DNA from: Cyanidioschyzon merolae
Taxonomy: Eukaryota
Direction: 5' to 3' (one strand)
Length of the DNA stretch: 64,000 nucleotides
NCBI GenBank assembly: GCA_000091205.1
Contig: AP006498.2
The position numbers were made by a program, and so were the translations under genes. The notes below the pieces were generated by a model. The model saw only the letters and a list, made by a program, of their open reading frames with translations, was not told the origin of the DNA and did no database searches. Positions 6,301-64,000 of this stretch are shown one piece after another (within the stretch, counting starts at the first letter, position 1; each line of letters opens with the position of its first letter).

Positions 6301-9300
6301 GATGGAGCGCACAACGAGTCGCGAGTTGGACGCTTCTCTGCAGAGAGATACTGGCATCTGTTCGTGTTCGTGGATGCGATGAAGTCGGTGCTGTGTGGCG
6401 GAGTTGGCGTTCGTCTGGGCGCGTTGGTGCGTTTCTTTCGTTTCCGCGCATAGCGTAATGTCGTGCGGAACGGCTGAATCTGGGTATCCAGAGTATGCGA
6501 CTCGATTTTTTGACTTTTTCCCAGAGTCGATTGAAGAAACAGAGCACGTCTCTAACGATGATAGCGTCTGCAAGGCTGGCACCAACGACAGCCAGTTGCC
6601 TGCGAGGATCAGATCCTGGATGATACGCTGAGGTAAAGTTTAGTGTGATGGATTGAGTTTCCTGTACTCATACAGGATACAGATACGCGCAGTGAGCTCG
6701 AAACGAAGCGACATGGTCAGCGGCGGTGTCTGCGCCTTGGACGAGTTTATCGGCGCTCATGCACGTGAACGGCTCGTTGCATGGTTCGCTCCGCCCTCGT
6801 GCATAGCGTTGCGACCAGGTTCCGTCGAGCGCACACCGTACCCGTGTCGAAGAGGTATTCGCTGGGTCTCTGTGCAGCGAACTGGCAGAGTGATTGTGCA
6901 AGCTGTTCCAATGAAGGCTGGTCGTCTGCAGAGCGCCGCAACGAGGGCTGAAACGTTTTTCCGGTGGATATCTGTGTGAAAAAGATGATCAAATACGCAG
7001 CTTATGGAGGCGCATATTACCGAGTGCCATTCGGGTGCAGTCACGCATGTTTGGGCATGTATTGTGCACTCCAGTATCGCACCTATCTTGGACCGTTTAA
7101 GCGAGGTATTGCGGGCGGCGTCGGCTATCTTCCCAGCATACACGCGTACTGTGCAGCGCTTGCGAGGCGTAGGTCACCTGCTGACAGCGATGCACCATTT
7201 TGTGGCCAAGTACGCGTTGCTAGCCTTGCGCACAGCATACGGCGCCCGCACCGATATCGCTCACCCTAAAAACACAAGCTCCATTTGCCCGATCGCAGAA
7301 GCAACTTGACATCTCTGGGAATGGCGGCAAAAGAATGGACGCTCCCGTTGGGTACTGAGTGCCATGAGCATAGAAGTCATCTGCGATGCCGGGCGCGGAG
7401 CAAGACTCACCGTGCGCTAGCGTCTCAGGTGGACGTAGGTACAACGTCCGTTATCAATCGTAGCGTCTTGGAAGAGCAGCGTTCAAAACACTGCGCAGAG
7501 AATGCCATACAAGTCTAGCGCGGCGAAGGCGAAATCGATAGATGCAGAGCAGTGAATCCGGACTGCCTTTGTATGCATGCCCTTTTGTTTTCGCAGGTTT
7601 TCCTCGAAGTTTTTTCCTGAAGAAACGTATCCAGTTCATTGCAGAAACGTCGCTGGACGACTTGGTGTTGACTCCGATAGCATAGGAGTACAAAGACCCG
7701 TCTCGCCAAAGTAAGCCGAGCCACGCTCAGCAGGTGGATGACGCACACGTCTCGTCATCCGCATCCAGTGCGCAGTGCATCCGAAACAAATGCCATCAAA
7801 CTCCATCCGCACACCTGCATCGTCATCAATCCATTCCCCCCATTTTCCCCATTTCCGGAACAGACGACTAGTTCAGAACAGAGCAGACGCCGTGCTCGAA
7901 TAAGAGCGATCCCGCCGCCACAAACATGTATTCCATGTGGTCTGCACGTATGGGGTCCGGTCCCATGACATCACTGTAGACACATGTGTATAGCACTATG
8001 CTGCGTCCGTCGTGCGCTACAATTGGCCTCTGCGAGCAGAGACCAGGCATTCGAACATCGTCGCGACGAGCATTTGCGGGGCTCATGCATGGCCTCTCGG
8101 CTCAGGACAGACAGCGGAGACACGTTTACCGCCATGATGGAGACAGTCAGAATATCTGTGTGCATGCACTTTGTGTAACCGACGCCTGAGTCGAGCAATG
8201 AAACTCCTCTCCAACCGTTCGAGGTGGATGACGAGCAAGTCTCGGTGGCGGGCGTGAATTCCGGTTTCATTGATATGGGCGCCGTCGCCGAGCTCATGAG
8301 GGGGTAGGGGACGGAGCCAGAGACCTCCAAGGCATGCAGCTGTAGCTGCTCAGTTCTGCCAGCGCACGGCAGTATCGGGAGTCGGGCATGATGGACACGA
8401 AGAGACATCCCGGGAGCTAGAATGACGGCATCAGGACCGAACTCGACGCTTTAAGCTCCGGATCGAGCAGCGAAGGCAGACGCTTTGCGCGCTTCATTCG
8501 TAGTGTTCGTGAGCGTCCAAATGCATGATCCAGACCATCCTTGGGAGGAGTACATCAAAACGCGATGCGGCCTACATCGGTCTCGTCTGTACGCACACAT
8601 GAGGCGTGCATTCTCCAACTTGTTCATTGAGTCGCAAAAGCAAATGACCCGCAGGCCACTTGGTTCGGAAGCGGCCTAGTGTACTGGACGTGCTTCTGCT
8701 CGCAAAAGCTGCACTTCTGCCTCTTCGGCGAGAGCGTGCCACACGGGATATGTCCGCAGATGATCCCGTCACTTCTGTTTGCATGGCAAAGGGCATTGGA
8801 CTCGATCTTAAGTCATTGCAAAAAATCGCCTCCATTGGAGCCTGCGTCACCGTTTTGCGCGGAGGCTTCGCACAGAAATCAAAATTTCTCGACTTGTTCT
8901 ATAGCCTGGACTCTATCTGCTAATCGTTTCATCACGGGCATCATCCCGTTCTGCAAATCCTCTATCGAAGGGGAAAGCGTGCACTCGCTCATGTTACGGA
9001 AACCGTACTCGCCGAGCGAATCGCCCACAAGTCACCCGTGATCGTTATGTACAGCACCAGACACGGAAACGGAGCAGGGTATTGAGCAGAACCTTCTCTA
9101 CCCGTCAAAGAAAAGTACCAAGCTATGAAGCAAGCGTTCGCGCGCAGCAGGGGGGGCCTCTATACGGGCGCAGTGCTAGCCCTATGCGAACACCTGACAA
9201 ATGCCAAGTGTCACCGATGCCAAAGGCGTACCAGCGCTATTCTGGAAGAACATGAACATGGCAAGAGACGCGTAGCTCGCAACTGCCACCTTTACATGAA

Positions 9301-9490
9301 ATGTAGCGACAACGTTCAGAGGCGGCGAGCTCGGGAGTTTAAACCTGCCATCAACATCCCTCAACAAACGACGACAGAACCTGAGTAGAAGTAGAGACTG
9401 GCGTATGTAAAACGGGAGATAAGAAAACAAAAAAATTAGCCGTCAGACTAAAAGCACGCAAAACTGGGGTTGATGATGGAGGAAGGAGAC

Positions 9491-10246
9491 CTAAGCTTCG
9501 GCGTGTGCACCTGTTTTGGAGGCCCAGCGACTTGCTCCATACGCTACTACGGGCCTTTGACGCTTGCACTCCTTCAAGGCGCTCAACTGACTGAAAAGAA
9601 TGTTGAATGTGCGCTGCTTCCCACAGTACAGGTTCATACGCTGGAAAGCCCACCGGGGCTTGGTATATTCTCTCCAGAGCGCCTCCCAATGAGCAACGCG
9701 AACTTTCATGAACTCCCGAAAAGCTCGATAGCCCGCTCCGCGGCACGTCATCTCGCTGGTCGCTTCCAGGTGATCCTTCACTCGTGCATTCCATGTCTGA
9801 ATTTTCTTCCTTGCACTCATGATGCCGGATTCTCGGTAGTATCTCGCCCTCGAGAGCTTGAAAAGACGAATGTCTTTATGAGGCAAATTACCGTCAGTAC
9901 CATCTTCCGCTCGCTTGGGTGCTGCGATGGCTATATGATTCGTGTTTCCAGGGTCTGTGCCAACGACAAAGCCGTTATCCTCCACCTCCTGCGTCACAGG
10001 ATCCTCCTCCTTCTCATCTTCATGGTTCGTCACGGGCGCAGCCGAGGGCGGAACTGGACGATCTGTCTTCAAGCGCCGATAGTGTACATACATGGTTACT
10101 CCATCGGTCTCAATCATCCCAGTGAATAACTTTTGCTTGCTCGTATTGAGACGTTTGAAATCGAAAATATTCTTCCAGTACGTCTCCCGGTTTTCGCCGG
10201 AGGATTCCTCCCTGCTAACATCGAACTCCGAACTGATCTCCTTCAT
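9491..10246 (-). pseudogene. Truncated TnpB/Fanzor-like nuclease ORF (RuvC-I only) of copy A
   Basis: The 251-aa ORF aligns to the N-terminal half of the copy B protein ([22 protein letters not shown]; [24 protein letters not shown] RuvC-I; [28 protein letters not shown]). It contains only one unit of the 25-aa repeat. It terminates after VVAYGASRW and lacks the zinc finger and RuvC-III. Confidence 0.7.
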
Positions 10247-12140
10247 GATGCACTAGAAGACCTTGGAGTCGATAGTCACAAAACGTGACTTGATGTTGCA
10301 CAACGGAACGACGTTGAAGCGCGTCCCCCATTAGGAAAGCCTTCCGTTTCTCCGAATCTTCGTTTTTTGTCCCACTAAGCTTCATCTCTGCCTTGCCTTC
10401 GAGTTCTCGATCCAAAAACACGAAATACCTCAATATGAGGAGGTAGTATCTTTCCTTATCTTTTTCAACTCTGATACCTTTTCTGCTGGATTCGCCAGCT
10501 CCAGTACCGTACGATGCTCTTGCATGACCGCACGGATTACAGAAGCTTCATTCGTGCTCTCGTTTGACGCCTTCTTGTCTACAAATTGGATCTCATCTTC
10601 ACGCTTGTGATCTTTCGTGATGCCATTGATTATCGCCCATATTCCTTTGCGAGAGGCACCCGGGTAGAGCGCAAACACGGCGCCTATCATGAAACGTTCG
10701 AGGTTCACGATCATATGTTTCTTCAGGTTCGTGAGGTACTTCATGGCCCCGTAGGTAAACATACCCCAGTATCCCATGTATCGAGTGCCGTTGAAGTGGT
10801 ATTCGGAGTGATTTTCGTGGAAGGCATGCACTAGCTCATTTTCCCTCCGCGCTTCCCCTTTACTAAGCATCAGGTGCCGAAGAATGGTCTTGTCGAAAAA
10901 ATCGCCCGGAACCTCGACTGTTTCCATGTCCGTCACGTCGAGATACATCTCCCTCGACATATGCATTAGCCCTGACGAAGCCTTTATAATACTCATGGAG
11001 TACGACTTAACACGGTTTCTAGTTGCCTCCCGTAACTTCTCCACCCACGCATTCTTGATATGTTTAAGAAGACAGGCTTTCACCACCGTCACGTAGGACT
11101 CTTGTTTTTCGTGCAGCTTCTGACGTGGGCTCTCCCTCTTCTGCGTCTTTGTCTTTTCCTGTTACTCTCCGCCGGGCACTGTTTTTCGTTTTTTTTCTGG
11201 CAGCCGGCGACACCTGCCTTCCAGGATCCTCCACTTGCTTTTCCAGAAATTTCCTTTTTTCGGAAAAGAACGCGCTTTGAACGCTTCTGTTATTAACTGC
11301 GAAAAATCAACCGAATACACTCATTAGAGCGTTGAAACACGACTGAGATGAAGTAATATATTTCGCTACGATTCCAATGCAAATACACGTTTTACGTTAA
11401 AACAACAAGTCAACGAATGGTCAGGATTGCGTTTCCCTTCAACGGCGAGATGCGCGTCGTACCTCATGCCTGCCGGTAATGGAGGTGCGCATCTCGACCG
11501 CACTATATGCAGCAAAGAACAGAGACTAGCTACTGACTAGCAATGAGATGACAATTTCATTCCCACTCTACAGTAAACGTTAAAAGGGCAAATGTTGCCA
11601 GATCGTCGAAAGCTTACCTTCCAGGCGAAAGGTCCAGCGAGCCGGACGAGTCTCCGGGGGTTCGTGCTTCATGGCTTCCCCTTCGCCACCCCAGTGCCAG
11701 GTGCTTTAGTGATATCTGACCAACTCATCCCCGAAGCGGTTTATTCCGGCATTAAGGGTGCTCAGGCAGCGTCTGGGCGTCGCCCGGCTTGCAGTTATCT
11801 CCTAGTATATCGCTTCGCGCTGCCGCAAACCGTATGTCTATCTGTACAAATTGCAGGCTCCCAGAAAGACAATTAGCCCCGATTCCGTATCACGTGTAGT
11901 ATTCCCCGAGCCGACGCCCCCGGTAGTGTGGTAAATATGTTCTGTTTCCGTGATACATCTGAACCATCGGTAGAGGGGCTATTCCGGGTGCTCACGGCCG
12001 GCAAGCGGCGCATGAGAGAACGAATGAAACGACCAGAACGTTCGAAAGCATGTATAAGTAATGGAACTTGGAGGTAGGGTGCAGCATGGCGGACGCTTCC
12101 CCGATTGCCAATTCCCATCTCGCAATCCGGGATCCATAGT
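9500..12140 (-). mobile_element. Fanzor/TnpB-like element, copy A: older, 3'-truncated and degenerate
   Basis: Nucleotide and protein homology to copies B and C. The TnpB-like ORF stops after RuvC-I and lacks the RuvC-II-to-RuvC-III part. Homology to copy B begins near 9510 (aligning to B at about 49230). It then continues to about 11783, with a roughly 220-bp insertion in A, and from 12008 to 12140. The 5' module (about 10960-11783) is about 97-99% identical to copy B, whereas the coding body is about 75-80% identical. Confidence 0.75.
10430..11092 (-). pseudogene. ORF-A homolog of copy A (upstream module of the Fanzor-like gene)
   Basis: The 220-aa ORF has a nearly identical N-terminal 45 aa and about 65-70% identity thereafter to ORF-A of copy B. 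The junction with the downstream nuclease frame carries an A5 run instead of A7. Confidence 0.6.
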
Positions 12141-12242
12141 CCGTGGAAACTTTTTGGCATCGAAATAGGAATCCGGCACGGGTCCAGAGGAGGCGCTTCC
12201 GCGGCACCAGCGCAGCGCAGCTGTCCCTTGGCAGGTACAAGA

Positions 12243-13190
12243 ATGACCGCGTTGTCCTTCTTCATGGAGACGCTGCGGTTAACCACGAAGGCTTTCAAGG
12301 TAGGAGCGCTGCTTGTACCGTCACGGAAGCATATTGCACACAGGAGTGACCTTTTTCGCCCGATTGGAGCGAAAGCTCGGTTTGCGACTCAGACGCACAG
12401 CGAAGCCGCCGGGGACTCTCCCGTCACCAAGGCTGCGTTCCTGGAGCGCTGCACTCTAGACCACGTGCCAACTCGAGGTTTCTCCCTGGAGGCACTGCAA
12501 GCAGCGGCCGAGGATGTCGGACTGTCGCCTGCATGGGTTGCTCGTTTCGATCGAGGCCCTGTGGAGCTCGTCGAATGGTGGCGTGAACACGAACTGCGAA
12601 CCGCGCGGGTCCTGCTCCTTGAAAAGGGTGACTGGCGGCTCGTCGATTCCACAGTAGCGGCGCTTGCTCGTGCTCCGTCAACACAGGTTCCGGAATATGC
12701 ATGGACGCGAGCCCGCCTGCTGTCCTTCCTTCAGACGATCTTTCGTCTCCGTGCGCCGTACAGGCGTTTCTGGCCACAGGCTCTCGCCTTGCAACTGCAA
12801 CCGAACAGCTGGAGTCAAGGGCTCGGGGTTCTCACGAAAGCCGTCGATGAGCTCGCCTGGTTCGCGGGCGATCGCTCTGCGGATATGCAATGGTACTGGC
12901 GGCGTGCTGCTGTTGCGTCGCTACTCCAGACAACGGAGCTTTACTGGATCGCTACCCTGCCAGACACAACGATGCTCGAACAAAATGCAACCTCAGACTC
13001 GTTTCAGGATTCGGAAACCTGGAATTTCGCGCAACGGCAGCTTGCTGATGACTCAGCTTTCATGACTGTCTGGTGGAGGCCAAACCAGAACCTTTCCAGT
13101 CGATCGCAGTCGGAGATTGTGGCGTTGCTTCGGATTTTAGGTCAAGGTGCGTCCGCTTGGGCTCGCGCCTGGTCAAAGGGATTCTCCTAG
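12243..13190 (+). CDS. COQ9: Ubiquinone biosynthesis protein COQ9 (mitochondrial)
   Basis: The ORF track begins at 12105 with a TTG; the first ATG is at about 12243 (MTALSFF...), followed by a presequence-like basic N-terminus. The COQ9-family core is present: GFSLEALQAAAEDVGLSPAWVARFDRGPVELVEWW followed by RLRAPYRRFWPQALALQ, matching the conserved COQ9 WPQAL region. Confidence 0.7.
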   Translation: MTALSFFMETLRLTTKAFKVGALLVPSRKHIAHRSDLFRPIGAKARFATQTHSEAAGDSPVTKAAFLERCTLDHVPTRGFSLEALQAAAEDVGLSPAWVARFDRGPVELVEWWREHELRTARVLLLEKGDWRLVDSTVAALARAPSTQVPEYAWTRARLLSFLQTIFRLRAPYRRFWPQALALQLQPNSWSQGLGVLTKAVDELAWFAGDRSADMQWYWRRAAVASLLQTTELYWIATLPDTTMLEQNATSDSFQDSETWNFAQRQLADDSAFMTVWWRPNQNLSSRSQSEIVALLRILGQGASAWARAWSKGFS

Positions 13191-22008: not shown

Positions 22009-24573
22009 GCACCACATTCGACTGCTTAGGTAAACAGGTTGAATGCCGCGAGCAGCGTGGCTTGTGGGCGCCTTTCGACGTACTTGAGCGAGCGTCGCAG
22101 GGGATCTCGATGCGACGCCTTGTTCAGTCTGCTGGACATCTGCGAGATACCGTGTCCGAGCAGTGCACCGGGCAGCATTGTCAACGGCGATGATGCTAAT
22201 CATCGTGACGCTGGTATACTGATTCATGTTGAATGATGGAATTACAATTTTGCGCACCAATCCCCAAGGGAAGCCGTTCCCGATGTACATGTAGGACACG
22301 CCAGCCGTTCCGGCATTGCTGGACCGTACCGTGCCAGTGCGCGGTCACGGGCGGGAATATGCGGTCGCGGCCTCGCTGCTGTCCACTGATTTCCTTGCTT
22401 CGGAAGTGGGCAGCGTTCCGGCACCATGCTCACAACGAGTGCTGAAGGATTTGCTCGAGACTTCGCTTGATATAAAGGCACCCGATGCCACAGGAGCACG
22501 ACTTAGATATGGATGCTTCTCGGGAGGTTCAAGTCGCAGTGCAGCATGTGCTTGCGCGCATTCTATCTGGTGAATGCACACCACAGCAAGCCTCTGATCT
22601 TCAATTGCATTGAAAGCTGACGTTCGATCCGCCTACGGTTCTCTACCTGGTGCATCCAGCTCTGCATCAAGCTCAACTTTTGTACCTGATTCAGCGCACA
22701 ACCGTGCTCGTGAAGCGTGCATGTCGTTCTCAACTCGTCGATGGGAATCGTACAGCGTCGACTCGTGCACTCGTTATACGCTCTCGTCGAAGGATGACGA
22801 GTGTAGCCTTTGCGCGCTGCAGCCTGTCCAGCACCATAGCTAACACCAAATGACGAAACGCATCGGCCGTTTCATTTTCCATCTCATTGAACAGGTACGG
22901 GAATGCACGCCTCGAGCCTGCATAGCACCGTAAGCATTAGTGGCCTCAGCGTGGTCTCATGTGCTCCCGACAAAGCTTTTCCGCATAAGCGCTTTGGATG
23001 CTCATACACGCACCGAATGAAACGTACGAATCATTGTCCTCTGCTCCATACATGACTGAGAGCGTCGAGATCGGGGTTCTGGTAACGTCGTCATTCCAGT
23101 TGATGATATACCTCGTCGTGATCATTGTGCTCGACTCACGAACATACCGAGCCAGGGAAAAGCTCATCAGATTCATCTGCTTTCCGTTCAGGCCTTTGGC
23201 CGCGTGCTCTTGACTTGGAGGTACGGCGACGTCTATGACGCCCTGGTACCACGAATTCATGCCCGGAATCAAGTCTTTCATTTCAGTTGCTTTTGGACAG
23301 TTGAAAATGCATCTCGTGGTTCGACTCGCTTCTTGGCTATACAATGTGCATTCAGATTGACATTTAGTCGTTCTCCATGGTCTCTGTATACCTCTTGTCA
23401 TGTCCTCCCCGTAAACGCGAATCCTTGACCGAGCTGCACCTGTGCCCTCCGCAAACTTTGATCAAATGCTTCATTGCTGTTGGAGGACATCGGCTCCTTT
23501 TCCCCATCTCCAATACCTGGTGGAGTCGCATAGATTTGGTCGCTATGCTGTATATTCGTTTTTGTCCTAGAGGTTCAGATGCACTGGGTAGACGGAAAGT
23601 GTGATCCACTGAGACGAATACTCATCTCGAATGTTCCCTGCGTTCGCAGTACACGACGACATCGACACTGTGCTGTTCATCGCGGAACAGGATCCGAATA
23701 AAGACTCGCAGTTTTCAGAGTCCCTTCATGCCTCCTGATCACCATTCGTACCAACGTTACGAAGACTTCACAAATCCTATCAATCTTTCGGCAGGATCGC
23801 ATGGTGAATGCAACGGGTGGAATCGATTGACCAGGGCCGAGTCATACCGAAAGAGCTTGATCAGTGCTTGTTTTCGGCGCATGACGTTCAGCGAAAGGAC
23901 CAGGAGGAGTGCGATTCGTCTACCACCTGCTGACCGAACTATGACTGACTTGTCGAAACAATGCCGTTTTTAGCGAACGAAAATTCACCGCATAAAGTCC
24001 TTCTGCGACCTTTCTCCCATTTACAGGATTTGTACCTCTAGTTGACTACTTTCGAGGAAAAAGAACGGAAACAATGAGGACGTGCTGCTACTGGTCCTCC
24101 GGGTTTCACCGATGATCATCGCGATGACTATGGTCAGTGAACCCCAGAGCTAGGCGCGGCATCGCTCCGTGATCATGCTCCGCCCTTCTATGAAACGCAG
24201 ATGCCAGTAGGTTTCGCGTCAACAGCATCAGAGTGCACAAGTCGCAAAGTGCTCCCGTTTCACTGCTTCACGCGACACGAAGCGGGTCCAGTGCGTGCTA
24301 CCCTAGCAAGTACTCGTGTTCTGCGAAACTCGAAACGCGTATCGGCGCTTTATCACCGAGACAAATCTTGAAAACAAGTACAGTGCTGTTATGTCGATCT
24401 CGTGCTCCCAGCGATAGCATCTTTGGAGCGATTTCGCGAAACAGTCACGTCGAGGAACTCGTATCCCCGACACTAGCGAAATACCCAGCGGAGCTTGCAT
24501 CTCGTTGGAAGCAGTGCACGGCAACTCCCCGCATGAGATGTCGAGATGAATGCATTGCGCACCATGAGATCGC

Positions 24574-27224: not shown

Positions 27225-27830
27225 TCGGCCCGTGAGGCGCTTGTTCCACTCTTTCATCTCAATTGGGTTCCACAACCAGGTACATGGAACCAAATGATTT
27301 TTTCGCAGTTTATAGCAGACTTGTCGGAAGTGTTCTCATTGGAAGGAATAAAAAATCCAAGGGAAATGAATGGATGTGAAAGTCGACGGACGCACAGGGC
27401 CGTCATTGCCGGATTCACCAAGGGAAACGAAAAAAGACCTCTTCTTGCCGACCGTCGAGTGAAGAAGAGCAAGTGACAAAGAAGAAGGAGATATCCGAGA
27501 GCGCTTGTTTGCCCAACGAAATGGTGGCGAGATGTTAGTGACACAGAGGGTACGAGTTCTAGAAAGCCTTGCATTCATGAGTTCCACCAGAGGCAATGAA
27601 CGTAAAGAGTTCGTATACCTGGACTTTACGCCGCCATCAATACCAGACAGTGTACGGTGCTGAAGACGAGACCCGAGGAGCTGACGCGAGCAAACTTCAT
27701 GGGGCAGCCTCTGATGCTCGGAGTTTGTCCGATGAAACAGTAACCGATAGCAGGCGGCGGGCAGAACAAGGCAGGGAGGCGTCTTCGAATGGGCATAAAT
27801 GTAACCTCCATGGTTGTGAAAAAGCTTTTG
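27225..27830. repeat. Dispersed repeat family X (copy 1)
   Basis: About 600 bp is homologous to 51990-52600, for example acccgaggagctgacgcga...ggcagggaggcgtct and gtgaaagtcgacgg...ccgtcattgccg. Confidence 0.6.
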
Positions 27831-32379: not shown

Positions 32380-34689
32380 ATGTGAAACAGAGGAAGCAAG
32401 TTGCCCATCAGTTGGCGGTTAACTGAGTAGGCGTGCTCAGAAGCAACACAACGCTTGCATATCCGCTCGAACGCACGCAGGTCGATCGGCACGCTCTGGG
32501 TTTTGGCATGGCGCACTTCCCGCCAAAGTGCGATAACAAGTTCCTCATTTTTGTTTGTTTGATGAAACGTTTACATTGTCCTCGGATCCCAGGTTGCACG
32601 ATGAATTGTGGCTATCGTGAAAGGGTTCATCATGTTGCACCCAAATTTTAAGTACCATGACGCATGCGTCCTCTCGGATGTCCAGGTCGTTCTGTGCGTT
32701 CGATCGTGCATCGAATGCCTGCGCTGAGCACCTGCAATAGCGCCTATGCTGCTGGTGCGGATGCAACACGGAGACAGAGCGGCATTGCCGTACCAATGAG
32801 GTCGTCGGCTCGAGGCGTGGTTCAACGCATTCGGTACTGGGACTCATCATACTTCTAGGAGCCTGAAAGGCTGTGCAGACAGACGTCCCCCCAGCGACCA
32901 CGCGAAGTGACATACTAGGAATCAACAGCGACCGGTGCGTCGCCGAGAAGCAGCCTATCCGCTGCGATTCCCAGACTAGACTGCGTTATGGACAAACTGC
33001 TCAGGTCTCGGCACTGCACCCGTCGCTGCAGAGGCACATGCAGCGGATGCCCGGTTGACTCGAGCGGCCGCAGGACCTTCCGCCTAGATGGTAAACTTTC
33101 GGACATAGGGAAAACTTTCCCCCTGCCAACGCTTACCGTAGAGGAAGAACGAAATCGTTATCGAGTTGCTAGTACGTTTTCCGTTTCTGATCTGTTGTCA
33201 ATGTTTACTCGATCGGATGCACGCTGAGGCTAGCAGCGCACCGCCGCGCCGTCCTAAAGCGATCAAAAAAGGCACAGTGTCGGAGGCGTTGCCGGACCGA
33301 TCAATTCGCTTTATGCAGCGGGAATACTGGAATGGAGGTCGTACAACGTGGAAACGTATGCACGGTACGAGCTGTCGCTTGGATGGGCATCGCCAGCATG
33401 AACGCAAGCAGGCAAGCTCGTCCCGTGTCACTGTTGGTGATTCCGCTCCCGAGTTGTTCACCTAGACTTGTCTTTTCAAATTTGCACAGGATACATGGGT
33501 ACCCGGCTAGAACCATTGCTTCTACATCAAAAGAAGCGCTGCGGCGTTGAAGCACGATCGGGCTGATGCCACAGACACTCCAACAGACATTGAGCGAAAA
33601 CCATGGTACACAAAATTAGGCAATGATTTGTGCGATCTTTCCATAACCTGCGAGCCATTGGAGACGAAAGAAGCAATTGAACCTCCGCAGGCAAAGGTTG
33701 AAGGGCCCTCATTTCACGCGCTCTACAGAATTCGAGCGGTTTCTGCGAACAACAGCTAAGAAATCGTTTCAATGATGCGACGCATATCAAAGTCTGGGTA
33801 TAGCATGGACCCTTTTTGCCCAAGTTTCCTCGCGACATGGAAAAAGCACAATGGGCGCAATAGACTGCACCTGAACACTCCAGACACATGAGCGCGAAAA
33901 ATAGCATCCTCGCGCTCGGCTACGTTTCTCCTGGACCTCTTGTAGATTAGAGTGGAACGCTGAACTGTGCGCGTTGTTCCAGTATTTCGATTTTTTTCGA
34001 ACCTTCTTTTGTCTACAGCTGCGACATTTGAACTTTGTCAATAAGAGCTCACGGATGAATACGTAGTTTTGGGATTCTCTGTCGTTGATTCGGTGTGACC
34101 TCGTCGCTGCTTCGTCGCTGGATTTCGTTGAATCAACGGGGTTACGATATATCTCGATGCCCTCGAACATGCTTTCGTAAACGAATCGATATCATTTTGC
34201 CATTTCATGCATAGAAGCCTCCGATCCTCTCCTTCCCTTCCATGACGCATGCTCAATTCAGACATTTTTCAAGTTCTCGATCTTTCTCTTCCGAGGCAAC
34301 TCCTGGGTGCAGCGGTTCGCGTCACCGGATTGGCAAGGGAAAATTCTCGAAGTCGCCCCTTGAAGCCTTGTTCAAAAGCGTATATGGAAAGCTCGCTGAA
34401 CTCTATGCGCAAAAGAATAGATACCGTTTGATAGACAAATCAGCAGCCGTTCATGGGCATCGACGAAACGGCAGGCAACAGCAGCTGGTACCACCCGCGG
34501 GATACGCTCCCAGGCGCTTCGGCCTCTTCGGTTTCCATGAAAGAGCGCCCCGGACTCAGCACTGATTTATCGCAGCAAACCGCATCCACTTTCGAATGCG
34601 TTACAGCTTTGCACAAAGAGAGCATTGACGAATCGGAATTTCTGGATCTCTTCTGCAAGCTGCATATTCCTTCTTGTACTTGTTCCAGC

Positions 34690-35879: not shown

Positions 35880-36480
35880 TGTCCTATTTCCGTATAGAAA
35901 GAACCGAGTGAGTCCTATAAGCCTTGCGTTCCAGTGGCAAACCTGCTATCTCCAGTCACGAACGCTCTCTATCGACCAGAGCATGACTCCAACTTGCCTC
36001 GCGCTACAGTTGCAAAACTGCTTTCTCCAATTTTAAACGCTTTCTACACTGAAAGGACCGAGTGAGTCCTATAAGCCTTGCGTTCCAGTGGCAAACCTGC
36101 TATCTCCAGTCACGAACGCTCTCTATCGACCAGAGCATGACTCTAACTTGCCTCGCGTTTCAGTGGCAAACCTGCTATCTCCAGTCACGAACGCTCTCTA
36201 TCGACCAGAGCATGACTCCAACTTGCCTCGCGCTACAGTTGCAAAACTGCTTTCTCCAATTTTAAACGCTTTCTACACTGAAAGGACCGAGTGAGTCCTA
36301 TAAGCCTTGCGTTCCAGTGGCAAACCTGCTATCTCCAGTCACGAACGCTCTCTATCGACCACAGCATGTCTCCAACTTGCCTCGCGTTTCAGTGGCAAAC
36401 CTGCTATCTCCAGTCACGAACGCTCTCTATCGACCAGAGCATGACTCCAACTTGCCTCGCGTTTCAGTTGCAACAAGGCT
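35880..36480. repeat. Satellite array: about 229-bp higher-order unit (two 75-bp subunits plus a 79-bp variant), about 2.5 copies
   Basis: ttccagtggcaaacctgctatctccagtcacgaacgctctctatcgaccagagcatgactccaacttgcctcgcg recurs at about 35929, 36082, 36157, 36312 and 36387. The array sits directly upstream of SUV3. Confidence 0.85.
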
Positions 36481-44368: not shown

Positions 44369-44795
44369 CCGCCGCGCAGAGGTGCACCTATGCCCTGGCA
44401 AGGCGTGGGAATGTCTGTACTAGCATGTCGCTAAATTTTGTGCCGCGCAGAGGTGCTCCTATGCCCTGGCAAGGCGTGGGAATGTATGTACAAGCATGTC
44501 GCTAAATTTTGTGCCGCGCAGAGGTGCTCCTATGCCCTGGCAAAGCGTGGGAATGTCTGTACAAGCATGTCGCTAAATTTTGTGCCGCGCAGAGGTGCTC
44601 CTATGCCCTGGCAAGGCGTGGGAATGTCTGTACAAGCATGTCGCTAAATTTTGTGCCGCGCAGAGGTGCTCCTATGCCCTGGCAAGGCGTGGGAAGTCTG
44701 TACAAGCATGTCGCTAAATTTTGTGCCGCGCAGAGGTGCTCCTATGCCCTGGCAAGGCGTGGGAATGTCTGTACAAGCATGTCGCTAAATTTTGT
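44369..44795. repeat. 71-bp tandem repeat, about 6 copies
   Basis: The unit gccgcgcagaggtgctcctatgccctggcaaggcgtgggaatgtctgtacaagcatgtcgctaaattttgt recurs with a 71-bp period (starts near 44369, 44440, 44511, 44582, 44653, 44723). It is preceded by an (ACACGA/CCAACA)-like microsatellite at 44220-44260. Confidence 0.9.
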
Positions 44796-46426: not shown

Positions 46427-48412
46427 CTAGTCGACTTCTTCGACAGTTGGGCCGCTGCCAGTGCCAGCGCCGCCAGCACCAGGCATGCCGCCAGCTCCAG
46501 GCATGCCGCCAGCTCCAGGCATACCACCGGCACCTGGCATGCCATCTGCAGCGCCGCCAGCTTGCTGGTACATGCGAGTGAAGATGGGCATGGTAACGCT
46601 TTCCAGCTCTTTCTGCATGTTCTTGATCTGATCGAGCGAAGCAGTGGCGCCGTTTTCTTCGAGCCATTCCAGCACTTCTTTGGTCTTGTCAAGAATCTTC
46701 TGCTTGTCGCCGGCGCTGAGGCTCTGAGCTACCTGTTCCTCTTCCACGGTGCGCTTCGCCGAATAGGCCAGCTGCTCGAGCGAGTTGCGCGCCTCGACCG
46801 TGCGTCGGACTTCTTCATCCTTCGCCTTCATGGCCTCTGCCTCCTTCACCATGCGCTCAACCTCCGCCTCGCTCAGCCGACCCTTTTCATTCTTAATCGC
46901 AATCCGTTCACTCTTACCGGTAGTCTTGTCAACTGCTGTAACATTCAGGATGCCGTTCGCATCGAGGTCAAATGTGACCTCAATCTGAGGCACACCCCGT
47001 GGTGCCGGCGGAATACCTGTCAAGGTGAACTGTCCCAACAGGTGGTTGTCCTTGGTCATAGCGCGCTCGCCTTCATAAACTTGAATCGTGACAGCAGGCT
47101 GATTGTCGGCATAGGTTGTGAAGATCTGGCTCTTCTTTGTCGGGATTGTGCTGTTCCGCGGAATCAAAACAGTCATGACACCTCCGGCGGTCTCAATACC
47201 GAGCGAGAGAGGCGTCACGTCGAGCAACAGAATGTCCTTGGTCGTTTCAGACTCATGGCCCGACAAGATTGCAGCCTGGACGGCTGCTCCGTACGCCACC
47301 GCCTCATCCGGATTGATTGACTTGCAGAGCTCCTTGCCATTGAAGAACTGGCTAAGAAGTTGCTGAATCTTTGGAATGCGTGTCGAGCCGCCGACGAGAA
47401 CGACGTCGTCAACTTGGCTCTTCGACAAATTCGCGTCCTTCAGGACCCTCTCAACAGGATCGAGGGTGCTGCGGAACAAATCTCCGCAGAGCTCCTCGAA
47501 CTTGGCTCGAGTGATTGAGCTGTAAAAGTCAATGCCGTTGTAAAGGGAATCTATCTCAATCGTCGCTTGCGTCGCCGACGACAGCGTCCGTTTCGCCCGT
47601 TCGCACGCCGTCCGCAATCGCCGCATGGCTCGATTGTTCCCAGTAATGTCTTCCTTGTACTTGCGCTTGAACTCCTTCACGAAATAATCCACCATTCGCG
47701 AATCAAAGTCCTCGCCACCCAGATGAGAATTGCCAGAGACTGCGCGCACCTCGAAGATGCCCGAATCGACGCTCAGCAAGCTCACATCGAATGTTCCACC
47801 ACCAAGGTCGTAAATCAGCACATTGCGCTCCTTGTTATCACTCGTCTTCTTATCAATACCATACGCGATTGCGGCTGCCGTCGGCTCGTTGATGATGCGA
47901 AGGACGTTCAGACCGGCGATCGTACCAGCATCCTTTGTCGCCTGGCGCTGGGAATCATTGAAATATGCCGGCACTGTGATAACAGCATCAGTAACCTTCG
48001 TTCCCAGGTATGACTCCGCAATATCCTTCATTTTCGTCAACACCATGGCACTGATCTCCTCCGGGGAGAACCGTTTCACGTCGCCATGTGCGACAACCTG
48101 GATGAGCGGCTTGTCACCCGGGCCTTGAACGACCTTGAATGGCCAGTGCTTCATATCCTCCTGCACGGTAGGATCAGAGAACTTACGTCCAATGAGACGT
48201 TTCGCGTCAAAGACAGTATTCTCGGGGTTCAGCGCTACCTGGTTCTTCGCGGCGTCTCCGATGAGGCGCTCCGTCTCCGTGAAGGCAACATATGACGGGG
48301 TCGTCCGGTTGCCCTGCTCGTTCGCAATAATCTCAACCTTGTTGCCTTCCATAACGGCAACGCACGAGTAGGTCGTGCCAAGGTCAATTCCGATCGCCTT
48401 TGCCTTTGACAT
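46427..48412 (-). CDS. HSP70: Cytosolic heat-shock protein 70 (HSP70/HSPA family)
   Basis: [26 protein letters not shown] and [14 protein letters not shown] signatures are present. A C-terminal (GMPGAG)n repeat is followed by the EEVD cytosolic tail. The 661-aa ORF is uninterrupted with an ATG start. Confidence 0.95.
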
Positions 48413-48667: not shown

Positions 48668-48690
48668 GCCGACGGTTCGCGAAGGATTCG
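48668..48690. promoter_or_regulatory. Candidate heat-shock-element-like dyad in HSP70 upstream region
   Basis: gTTCgcGAAggaTTCggaAGc contains an inverted TTC/GAA dyad about 260 bp upstream of the HSP70 ATG and about 25 bp from the Fanzor-like element end. The spacing is imperfect (one 3-nt spacer), so this is weak. Confidence 0.25.
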
Positions 48691-48873
48691 GAAGCTTTGC
48701 CGCGAAAAACGCCAGCGGCGTACAGTAGTGGCAGCGACCGCGCCTTAGACAAATCGTTCTCAGCTGACGTGCAGACGCCTCCCAGCCTTTCTCGACCGGC
48801 CACCTACTACTGCTTCCAACTTCTTCTCATATAGTTCGACTTTGAGGGGTTGTCCAACAAAGTTCTCTCTTGT

Positions 48874-50274
48874 CTATTCTGGAGATCTGTTCTCCAGCAC
48901 CGCACATCTCCGTATATTGCTAGGGGCATGAAAGTCACGATTCACACACTCCATACGGTTCTTGCCATCATTGGTTGTACTTACTAACGCAGGCAATCCT
49001 CGAACGTTCGCCCTCCTTTCCATTTGCTCCTCTGTTAGCGGTCCGTACTTTGCGATTTCCTCAGGGCACCGCTGGCACTTGTCTATCTCGACCGTCTGAA
49101 GTGTACAACCCAGCTCGTGGTGTGTATAGGACGTTCGGAACTCATCTACAGGTATCGTGACGAGACGCCTTCCACACTCCTTGTACGTTCTTGTTGTTGG
49201 AGCTGGTATGCACCCCTTTTGGGTCTTCCATCGCCCTGCTCCATACGCTACGACGAGCCTTTGACTCTGGTCCCCGTTGAGCGCACGCAACTGATTGAAA
49301 AAGTTGGCAAACGCCCGCTGCCTCCCACAGTGTAGATTCATACGCAGACGGGCCCACCGAGGCTTTGTATATTCCTTCCACAGCGCATCCCAATGGGCAA
49401 CACGAACTTCCATGAATTTCCGAAAAGCTCGAAAGTCCGCTCCTCGGCTCGTCACCTCGCTCATAGCTTCCAGGTGCTCTTTCATTCCTGAATTCCACGT
49501 TTCGATTTTCTTCGTCGCATTTATGACACCGGATTCTCGATAGAATCTCGCTCTCGAGAACGTCAACAGACGGATGTCTTTCTGACGTAAGTTGCCGTAA
49601 GTACCATCTTCCGCCCGCTTCGGTGCTGCGATGGTTATGGTATTTGTGCTTCCGGGGTCCGTGCCAACGACAAAGTCGATATCCTGCACTTTCTGCTTCT
49701 CAGAACCCGCCTTCTTGTTCTCTTCATTCTTTACCGCGCCAACGACAAGGTCGTTATGCTCCACCTCCTGCATCGCAGGATCCGCCGTCTTCTTATCTTC
49801 ATCCTTCGTCACGTCAACGACAAGGTCGTTATCCTCCACCTCCTGAATCGCACGTTCCTCCTCTTTGTTTTCTTCATCCCTCGTCACGGGCGAAGTCAAA
49901 GGCGGAACTGGCCGATCTGTCTTCAACCGCCGATCGTGTACACAAAAGGCTACCCCATCGGTTTCGATCTTCCCAGTGAATACATTTTGCTTGCTCACTT
50001 TGGGACGCTTGGAATCGGAGATACGCTTCCAGTGGGTCTCCCGGTTTTCGCCGGTGAAATCCTTCCTGCTAACACTGAACTTCGGTCCGATCTCCCTCAT
50101 GATGCCGTAAAGGACGCCGGAGTCGATACTCACGAAGTATGACTTGATATTGGACAATGGAACCACGCCGGAGCGCTTCCCCACTAGGACAGCCTTCCGT
50201 CTCTCCCACTCTTCATTTGTCTCTTCACTCAGCTTCATCTCCGCCTTGCGTTCGAGCTCTCGGTCCAGAAACAC
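48874..50274 (-). CDS. TnpB/Fanzor-like RuvC-fold nuclease homolog (OMEGA-type RNA-guided endonuclease family)
   Basis: RuvC-I: [20 protein letters not shown] (D at about residue 206). Zinc-finger region: [13 protein letters not shown]...EIDKCQRC...MEC. RuvC-III: [15 protein letters not shown] (compare TnpB DRDxNAAxNIxxxG). The canonical RuvC-II glutamate is replaced ([11 protein letters not shown]). A 2-unit 25-aa acidic repeat sits just N-terminal to RuvC-I. The ORF track start is GTG; the first in-frame ATG is at codon 13. Confidence 0.75.
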
Positions 50275-50308
50275 AAAGTACCGTAGGACGAGGCGATAGT
50301 ATCGTTCC

Positions 50309-50947
50309 TTATCTTTTTTTCAACTCTGATATCTTTTCTGTTTGATTCGCCAACCCCAGTACCGCACGGTGCTCTTGTACAGTCGCCCGGATCACAGAAG
50401 CTTCATTCGCGCTCTCGTTTGACGCCTTCTTCTCGACAAATTCGACCTCATCTTCATGCTGTCGATCTTTCGTGATGCCATTGATAGTCGCCCATTTTCC
50501 TTTGCGAGAGATGCCCGGGCGGAGTGCAACCGCGGCGCGGATCACGAAACGTTCGAGGTTCGTTGTCAAACGGCTCGTCAGGTTCGTGAGGTACTTCATC
50601 GCCCCGTGGTCGTAAATATCCGCGCCACCCCTGTATCGGGTACGCTCGAAGCGGAATGCCGCGAAGTTTTCGTGGAGGGCATGCACTAGCACATTTTCCC
50701 TCCACGTTCCTGCTGTACAAAGCATCAGGTAGAGAAAAATCGTCTTGTCGAAAACCTCGTCCGGAATCTCGACCGATTCCATGTGCGTCACGTCGAGATA
50801 CATCTCCCTCGCCAGATGCATCAGTCCTGACGAAGCCTTTATAATACTCATGGAGTACGACTCAACACGGTTTCTAGTTGCCTCCCGTAACTTCTCCACC
50901 CACGCATTCTTGATATGTTTAAGAAGACAGGCTTTCACCACCGTCAC
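50309..50947 (-). CDS. ORF-A: probable N-terminal extension/exon of the Fanzor-like protein, separated by a +1 frame break at an A7 run
   Basis: The 212-codon ORF ends ...ISELKKR-stop at an AAAAAAA run. With A6 the frame would read ...[28 protein letters not shown]... directly into the nuclease ORF. The frame is also open upstream of its GTG start-type codon. A 77-codon KR-rich ORF (50944-51177) lies in another frame across the poly-T runs. Confidence 0.55.
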   Translation of the reverse strand: MTVVKACLLKHIKNAWVEKLREATRNRVESYSMSIIKASSGLMHLAREMYLDVTHMESVEIPDEVFDKTIFLYLMLCTAGTWRENVLVHALHENFAAFRFERTRYRGGADIYDHGAMKYLTNLTSRLTTNLERFVIRAAVALRPGISRKGKWATINGITKDRQHEDEVEFVEKKASNESANEASVIRATVQEHRAVLGLANQTEKISELKKR

Positions 50948-51919
50948 GTAGGACTCTTGTTTTTCGTGCAGCTTCTGACGTGGGCTCTCCCTCTTCTGCG
51001 TCTTTGTCTTTTCCTGTTACTCTCCGCCGGGCACTGTTTTTTGTTTTTTTTTCTGGCAGCCGGCGACACCTGCCTTCCAGGATCCTCCACTTGCTTTTCC
51101 AGAAATTTCCTTTTTTTCGAAAAAGAACGCGCTTTGAACGCTTCTGTTATAAACTGCGAAGAATCAACCGAATACACTCATTTGAGCGTTGAAACACGAC
51201 TGAGATGAAGTAATATATTTCGCTACGATTCCAATGCAAATACATGTTTTACGTTAAAACAACAAGTCAACGAATGGTCAGGATCGCGTTTCCCTTCAAC
51301 GGCGAGATGCGCGTCGTACCTCATGCCTGCCGGTTATGGAGGTGCGCATCTCGACCGCACTATATGCAGCAAAGAACAGGACTAGCTACTGACTAGCAAT
51401 GAGATGACCATTTCTTTCCCACTCTACAGTAAACGTTAAAAGGGCAAATGTTGCCATATCGTCGGAAGCTTACCTTCCAGGCGAAAGGTCCAGCGAGCCG
51501 GACGAGTCTCCGGGGGTTCGTGCTTCATGGCTTCCCCTTCGCCACCCCAGTGCCAGGTGCTTTAGTGATATCTGACCAACTCATCCCCGAAGCGGTTTAT
51601 TCCGGCATTAAGGGTGCTCAGGCAGCGTCTGGGCGTCGCCCTGGTCGCAGCGCATTCGGTGGTACGCCTACGCTGTTCTGTCCCTGTGCAGCATCCGCTC
51701 CAGCGGTACAAGCGCTGCGGCGGGTGCTCACCGCAGGCTCGGCGCACGAAAGAACGCACAAATCGACCAATCTAGCGGAAAGGGAGTCTAAGTAATGGAA
51801 CCTGGAGGCAGGGTGCACCATGATGGGCGCTTTCCCGAAAGCCGATATCCATCCCGCAATCCGTGATCCACGGTCAACGAATAGGTTTTCTCAGACCAGA
51901 AAAAGAACAAGACACGACG

Positions 51920-52600
51920 CACATCTCGCCGTTGAAGGGAAACGCGATCCTGATCATGAACGTGTCGCTCTAACGGACAAGACGTGTTAGGGTTGAAGGG
52001 GCAGCAAGGTCTAGTCTTTCAATGCATTCGTGTTCCACTAGCCTCGTAGAGTATTCAAGTGGTTTTTCGCGGTTAACAGCAGATGCGTTCCAAGTGCGTT
52101 CGTTCTCAAAAAAAATAGAATGCAATGGTATGGACGTGAAAGTCGAGGATACCGGAGGACCGTCATTGCCGAGTTCGACAAGCAAAATGAGGAAATCCTC
52201 TTCCCGCCGACCACCTATCCAAGAAGAACAACGGGTGACGACAACGAAGACGATGACGATGACGACGATGCGATATAGGCGAGAAAAGGTGTTTGCTCAC
52301 CGGTACGTTTACGAAACTGTGGTGGCACAGAGAGCACGAGTTCGAGGCGTCTTCGCAAAGCGAGGTTCCACCATCGGCCATAAATGCAAGGAGTTCGTCG
52401 ACCGAGACCCCAACGTCGCCATCATGATCAGATAATATGCAGAGCGAAAGACTTTACCCGAGGAACTGACGCGATCTGACTTGCGGGGCAGTCTCTCAGG
52501 GTCTCCGTACACAACCAGAAGCTGAAGCCGACAGCAGGGCCCGGTCCAGCACGGCAGGGAGGCGTCTGCGGGTAGATATCCATGTATACGACATGGTCGT
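51920..52600. repeat. Dispersed repeat family X (copy 2), beginning with an inverted copy of a roughly 230-bp module of the Fanzor-like element 5' region
   Basis: 51920-52145 is the reverse complement of 51095-51320. The match is near-perfect over the 40-bp core tcaggatcgcgtttcccttcaacggcgagatgcgcgtcgt and about 70% elsewhere. 51990-52600 is homologous to 27225-27830. Confidence 0.6.
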
Positions 52601-56379: not shown

Positions 56380-56990
56380 CGGCACCAGCAACTCGAGAAC
56401 GATGGGTTTCTCTCTCTACGGTAAGTGCTGAAAGGGGGAAGAGGTTTTCCGTATTTTCGAAACTTTATCCTATAGATGGAAAAGCAGCAACTCGAGAACG
56501 ATGGGTTTCCATCTCCACGGTAAGCGCTGAAAGGGGAAGAGGTATTCCGTATTTTCGAAACTCTACCCCATAGATGGAAAAGCAGCAACTCGAGAGCGTT
56601 TGCTTTCCCTCTCTACGGTAAGTGCTGAAAGGGGGAAGAGGTTTTCCGTATTTTCGAAACTTTATCCTATAGATGGAAAAGCAGCAACTCGAGAACGATG
56701 GGTTTCCATCTCCACGGTAAGCGCTGAAAGGGGGAAGAGGTATTCCGTATTTTCGAAACTCTACCCCATAGATGGAAAAGCAGCAACTCGAGAGCGTTTG
56801 CTTTCCCTCTCTACGGTAAGCGCTGAAAGGGGGAAGAGGTATTCCGTATTTTCGAAACTCTACCCCATAGATGGAAAACCAGCAACTCGAGAACGATGGG
56901 TTTCCATCTCCACGGTAAGCGCTGAAAGGGGGAAGAGGTTTTCCGTATTTTCGAAACTTTACCCTATAGATGGCAGATCTCGCGTGCTCG
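56380..56990. repeat. About 100-bp tandem repeat, about 6 copies
   Basis: The unit aactcgagaacgatgggtttccatctccacggtaagcgctgaaagggggaagaggtattccgtattttcgaaactctaccccatagatggaaaagcagc recurs near 56388, 56489, 56586, 56686, 56787 and 56885. It lies in the MgtE upstream region and generates long spurious ORFs on both strands. Confidence 0.9.
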
Positions 56991-58391
56991 ACGTGTCTAC
57001 CGGGCTTGTGCTCCGTGCGACTCTGCAGTGGCGGGTGCTCTTGCGCGACCTGAGTAGCATACCCGCTCCTAGGCCCAGAATAAAGTGCGTTGGGGACGAG
57101 TGGCTGTGCTGTTGCCACTGCACTCGCCAGGGCAGAGACGCGCGGACCTACAACACCGGAGCATTGTCGGCCTTGCGGGACCTTTCGTACAGAAGCTAGG
57201 TTTGCGACTGTAAGGAAACCTTCACCACTTTTCAGCTCTTACGGTGGAGTGGGAACGAAGTCATGCAAAGTAGTTTGTTCGTGTTTCATTTCTGTTCTAT
57301 TACCCTAATAGTTGATGTCCAGTGAAACGGAACGCATGCCCGGGTTGCGCTGCCGGCGCGGCAATTGTTGATACAATAACATCGATGAATCGAACCAGAA
57401 CGCTTGGGATGCGTACGTTCGTGCTGTACGCAATCAGGAAAGTGACCAGCATTCCCTAGAGACGTCCATGCGCCCCGGAAGCTGCAGCCCGTTTCCCAGC
57501 CTGCACCGGGAGTTTGACTGAGCGAACGACCCTGCAATTGCCGAGCCTACCGCAAGCGCTTGCTGTGGCGTTGCAGGCGCCCAACTAGTCGCCTTGTGGA
57601 GACAAAAAGCGTCTGCGTCGTATCCCAGCGGGAATCTCATCGAGGCTCAGGGCCATGCCCGCCTGGCACACGCCCCTTCGTTGTCCGTGCGAATTTCGGG
57701 CCGCATGGAGGTCGTGCTGCGGCGCGAACTCGCGGCATCGTCGTATCTGCTCGCTGAAGAGCGACCGCCTGCGGTCGCTGCTTCCTCCGCATACCGTGCA
57801 ACTGCATTCTTTCTGCCAACGGGGGTGACGTGCGCCAGTTCGGCATCGCCCGCGTGCTGCAAATTTGAAACCGTCACCGGCAAAGGATTTCTGTCCGCCT
57901 AAGTAGCTTCTCTAGGCACAGGCGTCTCCATCGGGAGCTGGGTACACGTGCTGGGTTCCGGATGAGGGTGCATACCCAGTCTCGCCACAATGCCCGCTCG
58001 CTGGACGTATCCGCGTGACGCTGTGTGCCTCGTTTGCCTCCAGGCCGGGTTTCTGGTAGTTGAGGACACCGCGCAGCCTGCTCATATGCAAGCCAGCCGA
58101 TCCTGCGTGCATTTTCGTGATCGAGTGCTCGCGTGCGTGCTATCAGTAGCCCGTCTGCGTGCCATCCGATTCCACGAGGAATCTTCAGAACAAATGCGCG
58201 CACCTACAGCATCAGTGGCAACGAGTAAGCACGAGTACCGCAGACCTCGAGTGCAGACTGCTGTATGCCTTGCATGCAGCGCGTCGCGCTGTCGACGCTG
58301 CGGCAGGGCGCCTTGTGCGCAAATCGGCTGCGACGTCTGTACTCGCGTCGAGACGCCTTTCCAGTAGGCAGCGTTCGGGAAAACTGCAGCC

Positions 58392-61212: not shown

Positions 61213-61793
61213 TCCTTTGACGCGATTCTTCTCGATATAATTGAAGCGTTGTCCAGTAACCTGAAAGATCGGGCGCTGCCAGAAAACTCGTCCGCAACAA
61301 GGCACGAAATGCACGCCCTGTCGAAGCGCAACAGCACACCGGTACAGTGTTAGCGGCCTTTCACCGCAGAAACTCGCACTGATGGTGCTTTACGGAAGCT
61401 TCTCTTCGTCGCGCCTTGAGCTCTGTTCCCGGTCGAAGCGAGGCTCCCCGGGTCTGCAAAGCTCTAATAAAGCCACGTGGGCAAAGAGTCGTGCACTGCA
61501 GCAGCTGCAGCACGAACCAGATATGCTGCACCCGTTCAGAGCAAGTGCAGTGCCTCGTCTCTACTGCCGATAACGGATCCGGAGACCGACGACGGTAGAG
61601 AAACCAAACGCCTTCACAGAGTCGAACGATGCCGACTGTGTACAGTAGTGGCGGTGAACGCGCCCTAGACTTAAAGTCGCCAATTGACGTGCAGACGCCT
61701 CCCAGCCTTTCTCGACCGGCCACCTACTACTGCTTCCAACTTCTTCTCATATAGTTCGACTTTGAGAGGTTGTCCAACAAAGTTCTCTCTTGT

Positions 61794-63419: not shown

Positions 63420-63453
63420 AAAGTACCGTAGGACGAGGCGATAGTATCGTTCC

Positions 63454-63996: not shown

Positions 63997-64000
63997 GGAG

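Follow-up and report, generated by a model that had tools for sequence, protein, structure and literature searches.

A mosaic pair of transposon copies

How can a truncated and degenerate transposon copy share several hundred nucleotides almost without difference with a second copy 39 kb away on the same chromosome, when the two are otherwise about 20% diverged? This question is raised by a 64,000-nt stretch of contig AP006498.2 of the red alga Cyanidioschyzon merolae (NCBI GenBank assembly GCA_000091205.1), which is referred to below as the window. Self-comparison located three copies of the family CMe-1A, assigned below to the Fanzor1 nucleases, all on the minus strand, to which the coordinates within them also refer: the 3'-truncated copy A (12162-9503, consensus positions 1-2649, by consensus alignment and a coordinate map), the full-length but inactivated copy B (51898-48673, by consensus alignment, the 5' end 51898 corresponding to consensus position 1 and the 3' end 48673 to position 3169), and copy C (about 61600-64000), the 5' part of which lies beyond the end of the window. 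The limits by self-comparison were about 9503-12136 for A, about 48708-51870 for B and 61620-64000 for C. A preliminary description of the locus had listed recent gene conversion, selection acting on a 5' end with a cis-acting or RNA-coding role and insertion of an independently mobile 5' module as possible reasons for the similarity of A and B. After our analysis, it is best explained by ectopic (interlocus) gene conversion between CMe-1A copies, with a probability of roughly 0.8.

Copies A and B were aligned globally, identity was scored in 100-bp windows, and a two-rate changepoint model was fitted and compared with 200 permutations. From A 11794 to about 10950, the 100-bp windows revealed an A/B identity of 96-100%, while the other shared body ranged from 72 to 88%. 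The maximum-likelihood changepoints enclosed a tract at A 11785-10971 (815 bp; B 51641-50826, consensus 375-1180) with 13 differences in 814 aligned bases (98.4% identity), compared to 78.1% outside the tract. Twice the log-likelihood difference was 234 for this fit and at most 21 among the permutations, and the support intervals confined the 5' break to 11785-11777 and the 3' break to 10979-10931. Along the alignment, identity amounted to 71.6% on the 5' side, 97.7-98.4% in the tract and 79.7% on the 3' side. The preliminary description had placed the near-identical stretch at 10960-11783, which agrees well with the tract and its non-uniform surroundings. A further stretch that it had given as 97-99% identical to B (A 12008-12140) in fact reached only about 72-74%, as A 12170-11938 was 71.6% and A 11938-12136 was 74% identical to B (the latter against B 51674-51870), with 69% over consensus positions 1-240. 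The upstream module had also been regarded as noncoding, which holds for part of it; the consensus open reading frame (ORF) starts at consensus position 906 (A 11246), and about 275 bp of the tract (A 11246-10971) belong to the lysine/arginine-rich N-terminal coding region.

Directly upstream of the tract, copy A carries a segment of 143 bp (A 11795-11937, consensus 223-365) that is absent from B. It had been taken for an insertion of about 220 bp in A. Since it was found in the multiple alignment, in the published consensus and in 27 other family loci (73-81% identity), the segment is ancestral, and it is B that has a deletion, rather than A an insertion. About 10 bp separate this deletion from the 5' break of the tract, and one may speculate that it was the heterology caused by the deletion that stopped the tract at this point.

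Orthologous loci in a sister strain

Orthologous loci were available on metagenome contigs of a sister strain. The A locus was present in five independent metagenome assemblies from different samples (L082-L086), which were 99.2% identical to A without any gap. In one of them, L083, the comparison extended over window positions 12800-8800 and spanned both junctions, again with 99.2% identity and no insertion or deletion, and the same 42.7-kb contig also carried an orthologue of B (L014). Since A is reproduced at this level in five assemblies, the mosaic did not arise from faulty assembly, and the sequence of A predates the split of the strains.

The two orthologues of the B locus, L010 and L014, were 99.3-99.6% identical to the window in their flanks, and B itself was 96-100% identical to them in most 100-bp windows, with two exceptions. 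In the first, B 51036-50834, differences were dense, so that only 63-70% identity to L010 and L014 was left, and B was equal to A. Here, B 50842-50834 matched A and not L010, while B 50825-50812 matched L010 and not A; the switch therefore occurred within 9 bp, exactly where the A/B tract has its 3' end. In the second, B 49958-50257, identity to L010 and L014 was 84-96%, while B and C were 100% identical, and this is probably a further conversion patch.

Based on this comparison, the tract was divided into two sub-tracts. The first, R1 (A 11785-11201), is common to A, B, L010 and L014, with mutual identities of 95-99% where covered (A 11549-11201). The second, R2 (A 10985-11200; B 51036-50834), appears to have belonged to A originally and to have been passed to B once the strains had separated. 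In R2, copy A was identical to all four orthologues that span it (216 of 216 bases) and B was 99% identical to those orthologues, while the version in L010 resembled mainstream members of the family (87-88%). The view of A as a pure recipient of B-type sequence was thus overturned for R2. A transfer from A to B is the economical reading, as the opposite would need a third-party replacement in L010 with an edge that coincides by chance with the older tract boundary. With R2 donated by A, the supposedly old copy A is therefore the donor and B the recipient for about 200 bp.

Copy C revealed an even larger replacement. Its orthologue L018 was 99.06% identical in the flank over 4985 bp without gaps. 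The body of C (61600-64000) shared 97-100% identity with B, compared to only 65-92% with its orthologue (L018 6000-8420), while the last c. 85 bp of C together with the flank matched L018 and not B. The closest paralogue of L018 within the sample was 94% identical. As the body of C is B-like and its end and flank are L018-like, it was C that was converted, and this happened recently; since C was overwritten, the similarity of B and C reflects conversion and not a fresh insertion.

Interlocus gene conversion as the preferred explanation

Gene conversion between copies, one of the three possibilities named at the outset, gained direct backing from these loci, as B and C are chimeric relative to their orthologues. 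A, B and C have kept their positions while internal patches have been replaced, with sharp breakpoints. During such an exchange, one copy would suffer a break or gap, to be repaired by homologous recombination with the other copy as a template, and neither copy would move. The tract would be the footprint of at least two conversion events in a pair that exchanged sequence repeatedly: an older one (R1, A 11785-11201), which would have taken place before the sister strains split and before R2, and a younger one (R2), by which about 200 bp of A would have been copied into B (51036-50834) after the split. The same process would recently have replaced copy C almost completely by B-type sequence. 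We infer both homologous-recombination repair as the molecular mechanism and, from divergence, the order of the events. Homologous recombination is proficient in C. merolae, a chromosomal URA5.3 allele of which was converted by introduced DNA (PMC3764038), so that templated repair would fit the known properties of this alga. A further family protein (P0005) also looked mosaic on inspection of the alignment, with an N-terminus nearly identical to B followed by a more diverged part (81% overall).

Ectopic gene conversion between dispersed repeats is known, e.g., from yeast Ty elements and mammalian L1 and Alu elements. The events described here resemble such cases in the size of the patches (about 0.2-2.3 kb or more), in their divergent flanks and retained genomic position, and in that neighbouring copies of one chromosome exchanged sequence more than once. 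They differ from them in that an RNA-guided-nuclease-type transposon of a recombination-proficient red alga is concerned and that the events were polarised by orthologous loci.

Several points weigh against interlocus conversion as told here. There was no unconverted A locus among the orthologues, so that R1 is read from the pattern of similarity and could have run in either direction. More than 350 matches to the family were detected, of which 86 loci were sampled; the patch in L010 and L014 might conceivably stem from a third-party donor (best match in the sample 88%), and the metagenome contigs of the sister strain could mix strains. The mechanism, moreover, is deduced from sequence and not from experiment.

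Alternative explanations

Copy A may already have been chimeric when it inserted, having arisen by recombination or template switching between subfamilies followed by transposition, so that no conversion in situ took place. Mosaic members such as P0005 seem to be common, and the pre-conversion state of locus A is missing from the orthologues, both of which would suit this scenario. It is nevertheless unlikely, as the patch is internal and two switches would be required, and as no other sampled locus revealed an A-type body (best non-orthologue 83.7%). In addition, B changed in situ at R2 according to its orthologous locus, with a breakpoint equal to the tract end, and copy C displays overwriting in situ. 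Even less can be said for an error of assembly or polishing, in which B-type reads built or corrected part of A. Repeats are error-prone and homopolymer-length differences are present here, but the five independent contigs matching A at 99.2% over 4 kb including both junctions, the B orthologue on one of these contigs (42.7 kb), and the reproduction of a frameshift of B, an A7 run, in L010 and L014 reduce its probability to practically nothing.

Two further explanations ascribe the similarity to the 5' module as such. Strong purifying selection, acting on it as a promoter, cis-acting end or noncoding RNA, is suggested by the hairpin and the putative promoter and 5' untranslated region (5'UTR) within the tract. 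Family-wide mean pairwise identity, computed among non-orthologous copies by consensus region, was 68-72% for consensus positions 1-905, 77% for 906-1180, 79-83% for the coding body and 76% for the 3' end. As the region of the tract is the least conserved part of the family, below the coding body, selection was rejected as the cause of the A/B identity. In accordance with this lack of family-wide constraint, A and B both reached only 80-83% identity to the consensus within the tract, locus L001 was 64-81% identical to either of them there, and the A/B identity collapses within the same module 5' of 11785. The hairpin reported earlier at A 11445-11502 does exist as an imperfect palindrome (consensus 648-705, just 3' of the part related to the separate element TE-N2_CMe), with a DNA fold of -19.6 kcal/mol (z = -2.3), but its covariation in 12 family members, in which 69% of cells pair in register, did not exceed that of shuffles. 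RNAalifold on the 5' parts gave no meaningful consensus structure and Rfam no match, which leaves selection a highly improbable cause. A young-type TE-N2_CMe moving independently and inserting beside an old relic is likewise very unlikely to have produced the mosaic. The mobile element as such is real, as it is known as a separate element with about 70 copies (PMC3627910), and we found a solo copy in the window (32565-33198) as well as solo or differently fused copies at other loci. Its limits in A (12162-11515), however, differ from those of the tract (11785-10971), which starts 377 bp inside the TE-N2 part and runs about 545 bp past its end at A 11515, so that it takes in the hairpin, the 5'UTR and a further 275 bp that are coding, and the first 370 bp of the TE-N2 part of A share only about 70% identity with B. 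Thus, the idea of a mobile 5' module proved right for the existence of the element and left the mosaic unexplained.

Family assignment

CMe-1A has been described from C. merolae as a family of about 150 copies with individual identities of about 80% to a consensus of about 3 kb (Bao & Jurka 2013, Mob DNA 4:12, PMC3627910). According to that study, it lacks terminal inverted repeats, target-site duplications are undetermined, and its 5' 635 bp are 95% identical to TE-N2_CMe (PMC3627910); the supplement provides a consensus of 3169 bp and the CMe-1 protein of 734 amino acids (PMC3627910). The published consensus aligned with positions 1-2641 to copy A (12162-9510) at 83.1% identity and was 81-88% identical to copy B and 85-88% to copy C. 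The copies of the window have the same 5' terminus as the published element (CGATGACAAA...), encode the CMe-1 protein with motifs including VNRDFNAAINIR, and match the published level of about 80% copy-to-consensus identity. In contrast to the published account, many copies in our sample begin at the hairpin without any TE-N2 part, and mosaicism or gene conversion was not reported by Bao & Jurka (PMC3627910); our literature search also found no report of gene conversion in the CMe-1A family. Compared via the CMe-1A consensus, the TE-N2 part of copy A (12162-11515) was about 80% identical to consensus positions 1-635. Besides this part of A, TE-N2_CMe was recognised as solo copies at 32565-33198 (plus strand, consensus 9-638 at 77%, without adjacent Fanzor homology) and at loci L011, L012, L030 and L044, and its limits are not those of the A/B tract.

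Homologues of the family in the protein database were numerous and unnamed, and all originated from Joint Genome Institute (JGI) metagenomes; one of them, P0001 (752 amino acids), represents an intact ORF. Their precomputed annotation was DUF8286 (PF26935), marked as weak. A profile search of 1.84 billion representative proteins revealed 1450 relatives. In 47 diverse relatives, the RuvC residues D484, E656 and D725 (P0001 numbering) and the motif RD..A.N were invariant, and a profile of these 47 homologues matched only Fanzor1 chains among the sequences of the PDB, namely Fz1 of Parasitella parasitica (9cf0, E = 2.3e-20), Spizellomyces punctatus (8gkh, E = 1.1e-12) and Guillardia theta (9cer, E = 8.9e-7). 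The earlier term "Fanzor-like" for copy A is therefore correct, and by its sequence the family belongs to Fanzor1, i.e., eukaryotic TnpB-like RNA-guided nucleases, with RNA-guided cleavage being a prediction. Unlike the solved Fanzor1 proteins, copy A is truncated and copies B and C are pseudogenes; furthermore, CMe-1A proteins revealed no direct pairwise similarity to them and are connected only by the diverse profile. Neither phmmer with the copy B protein nor a profile of close homologues resulted in matches to PDB sequences. Scans of the window ORFs with Pfam and NCBIfam gave no TnpB-type match, and no local Pfam model was hit at E values up to 0.1; among the distant homologues scanned, there was a single weak match to a Cas12f1-like TNB domain (E = 0.002). 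An AlphaFold2 model of P0001 from a shallow alignment of 34 sequences was unusable (mean predicted local distance difference test score of 33). Applied to the terminal 240 nt of 51 copies, i.e., the 3' end, where an omegaRNA is expected, RNAalifold yielded only a trivial element of five pairs; this 3' region is missing in copy A.

Condition of the individual copies

Homology of copy A to the family ends at 9503 (consensus 2649), so that RuvC-I is kept while RuvC-II, the zinc-finger region and RuvC-III are absent, as expected from the earlier observation that it is 3'-truncated with a nuclease ORF stopping after RuvC-I. The split RuvC triad (D...E...D) is complete in the family, in B and in C, and copy B contains the motifs DPG, DEFRTS and NRDF. 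Copy A retains a disrupted N-terminal ORF of 220 amino acids (ORF1, 10430-11092) and a RuvC-I ORF (9491-10246), which runs into non-homologous sequence past 9503 and has an orthologous protein (P0059) with 98% identity. Between the proteins of A and B, 162 of 247 residues (66%) were identical for the RuvC-I ORF and 148 of 211 (70%) for ORF1; the 75-80% originally given for the proteins corresponds to the identity of the DNA. ORF1 of copy A is out of frame with the following ORF because of a run of five adenines (A5) where the consensus has six (A6). The run, located at the ORF1/ORF2 junction at about 10446 in A, 50322 in B and 63467 in C, is A7 in B, C, L010 and L014, so that opposite frameshifts have hit the same homopolymer, and both recur in independent assemblies. 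The A7 run of copy B is real, since it was reproduced in the independent assemblies L010 and L014. In addition to this frameshift, B revealed a change of the start codon from ATG to CTG, a premature TAG and a second frameshift near the N-terminus, and by its sequence is a pseudogene.

Preceding RuvC-I, an acidic repeat of 75 bp (25 amino acids) was present with one unit in A (9959-10034), in line with the single unit noted earlier, three units in B (49659-49888) and six in C (62579-63033). Other loci harboured about one to five units, and the repeat is an unstable in-frame minisatellite within the nuclease gene. By inspection, the last c. 35 nt of the element seem to occur in two alternative versions in the family, ...CGTTTTTCTTTTGAAAGGCG and ...CGTTCGACTTTCGAAAGGCG (termini at 48673-48720 and 61600-61640), preceded by an apparent small GGCG...CGCC hairpin with a variable loop.

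Implications for the family

The family, its Fanzor1 nature and its separable 5' module have already been published, and interlocus gene conversion is a well-known process. What is added here is a new instance, a polarised set of conversions in a Fanzor1 family with breakpoints resolved to 9 bp and a whole copy overwritten. The preliminary description had contrasted A as an old relic with B as a young copy, which proved misleading: the family copies are all about 20% apart, B is a pseudogene, and the "old" pseudogene A gave sequence to the "younger-looking" copy B. Identity between CMe-1A copies is thus unusable as a measure of insertion age, labels such as "old" and "young" are unreliable, and conversion will distort any subfamily tree or consensus sequence derived from such copies. 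Recombination may also contribute to the long-lived coding capacity of this ancient, transposase-less family.

An extension of this thought, in our view unlikely, is that overwriting of copies by recombination is a main mode of persistence or spread of this transposase-less Fanzor1 family. Resident copies would suffer breaks, which a Fanzor nuclease provided in trans by intact copies might produce, and would be repaired from paralogous copies. If true, such repair would rewrite old relics, in the way that B-type sequence replaced copy C, and would restore coding capacity. This would explain the intact ORFs despite a copy identity of about 80%, which Bao & Jurka had noted as a puzzle. In the present case, even the donor types are pseudogenes.

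Hairpin, 5' termini and other elements of the window

The 5' kilobase of the family contained no ORF that is conserved across loci; an ORF on the opposite strand (11592-11876) was considered as a hidden gene and rejected, as its frame is not conserved across loci. Likewise, a placement of the family 5' end at the hairpin, suggested by L001 alone, was rejected based on long-type loci and the consensus. Repeatedly, the 5' terminus of a TE-N2-bearing copy was found head-to-head with another copy, within about 8-170 bp of it, the start of which falls within the hairpin (consensus about 676-683). Such cases were detected at the B/D junction (51898-51907), in L054 (5571/5601) and L060 (630/660), and in L004, L024, L039, L042 and L066, and the hairpin may be a hot spot of insertion or recombination.

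The partner of B at this junction, copy D (51907-52470, plus strand, consensus 683-938 aligned at 80%), is an internally deleted derivative, in which the 5'UTR and N-terminus of a diverged family member are joined to the C-terminal RuvC-III region (EFVDRDPNVAIMIR). It contains an ORF (52022-52435), the C-terminus of which aligned to P0001 residues 635-733 including RuvC-III (E = 8e-6), and related sequence was found at 27350-27818. Two inverted TE-N2 fragments at 56877-57259 overlap and extend past the 3' end of a tandem array with units of about 99 bp (56384-56973).

Fanzor remnants are abundant across the window. Using tblastn, much more diverged Fanzor1-like relics were detected at 7928-8736 (plus strand), 22506-23368 (minus strand) and 27624-27716 (plus strand), with 22-43% amino-acid identity over long matches and up to 64% over short C-terminal fragments; the relic at 22.5-23.4 kb was closest to a different subfamily (P0061). 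The ORF at 9125-9388 was considered as the C-terminus of a neighbouring Fanzor relic, for which no support was obtained (E = 0.34).

Overall, the window has a G+C content of about 55% and is eukaryotic and intron-poor, with several uninterrupted long ORFs. Among them are an uninterrupted ORF for a cytosolic HSP70 (46427-48412, minus strand) and an ORF with a COQ9 domain (12105-13190), which adjoins copy A. The HSP70 was 99-100% identical to JGI metagenome proteins, its exact sequence was absent from the protein collection, and the nearest named relatives belonged to Galdieria (75%). Two tandem-repeat arrays unrelated to the Fanzor copies were identified at 35897-36473 (period of about 75-77 bp) and 44371-44795 (71 bp), the latter differing in length between the window and the loci L010 and L014.

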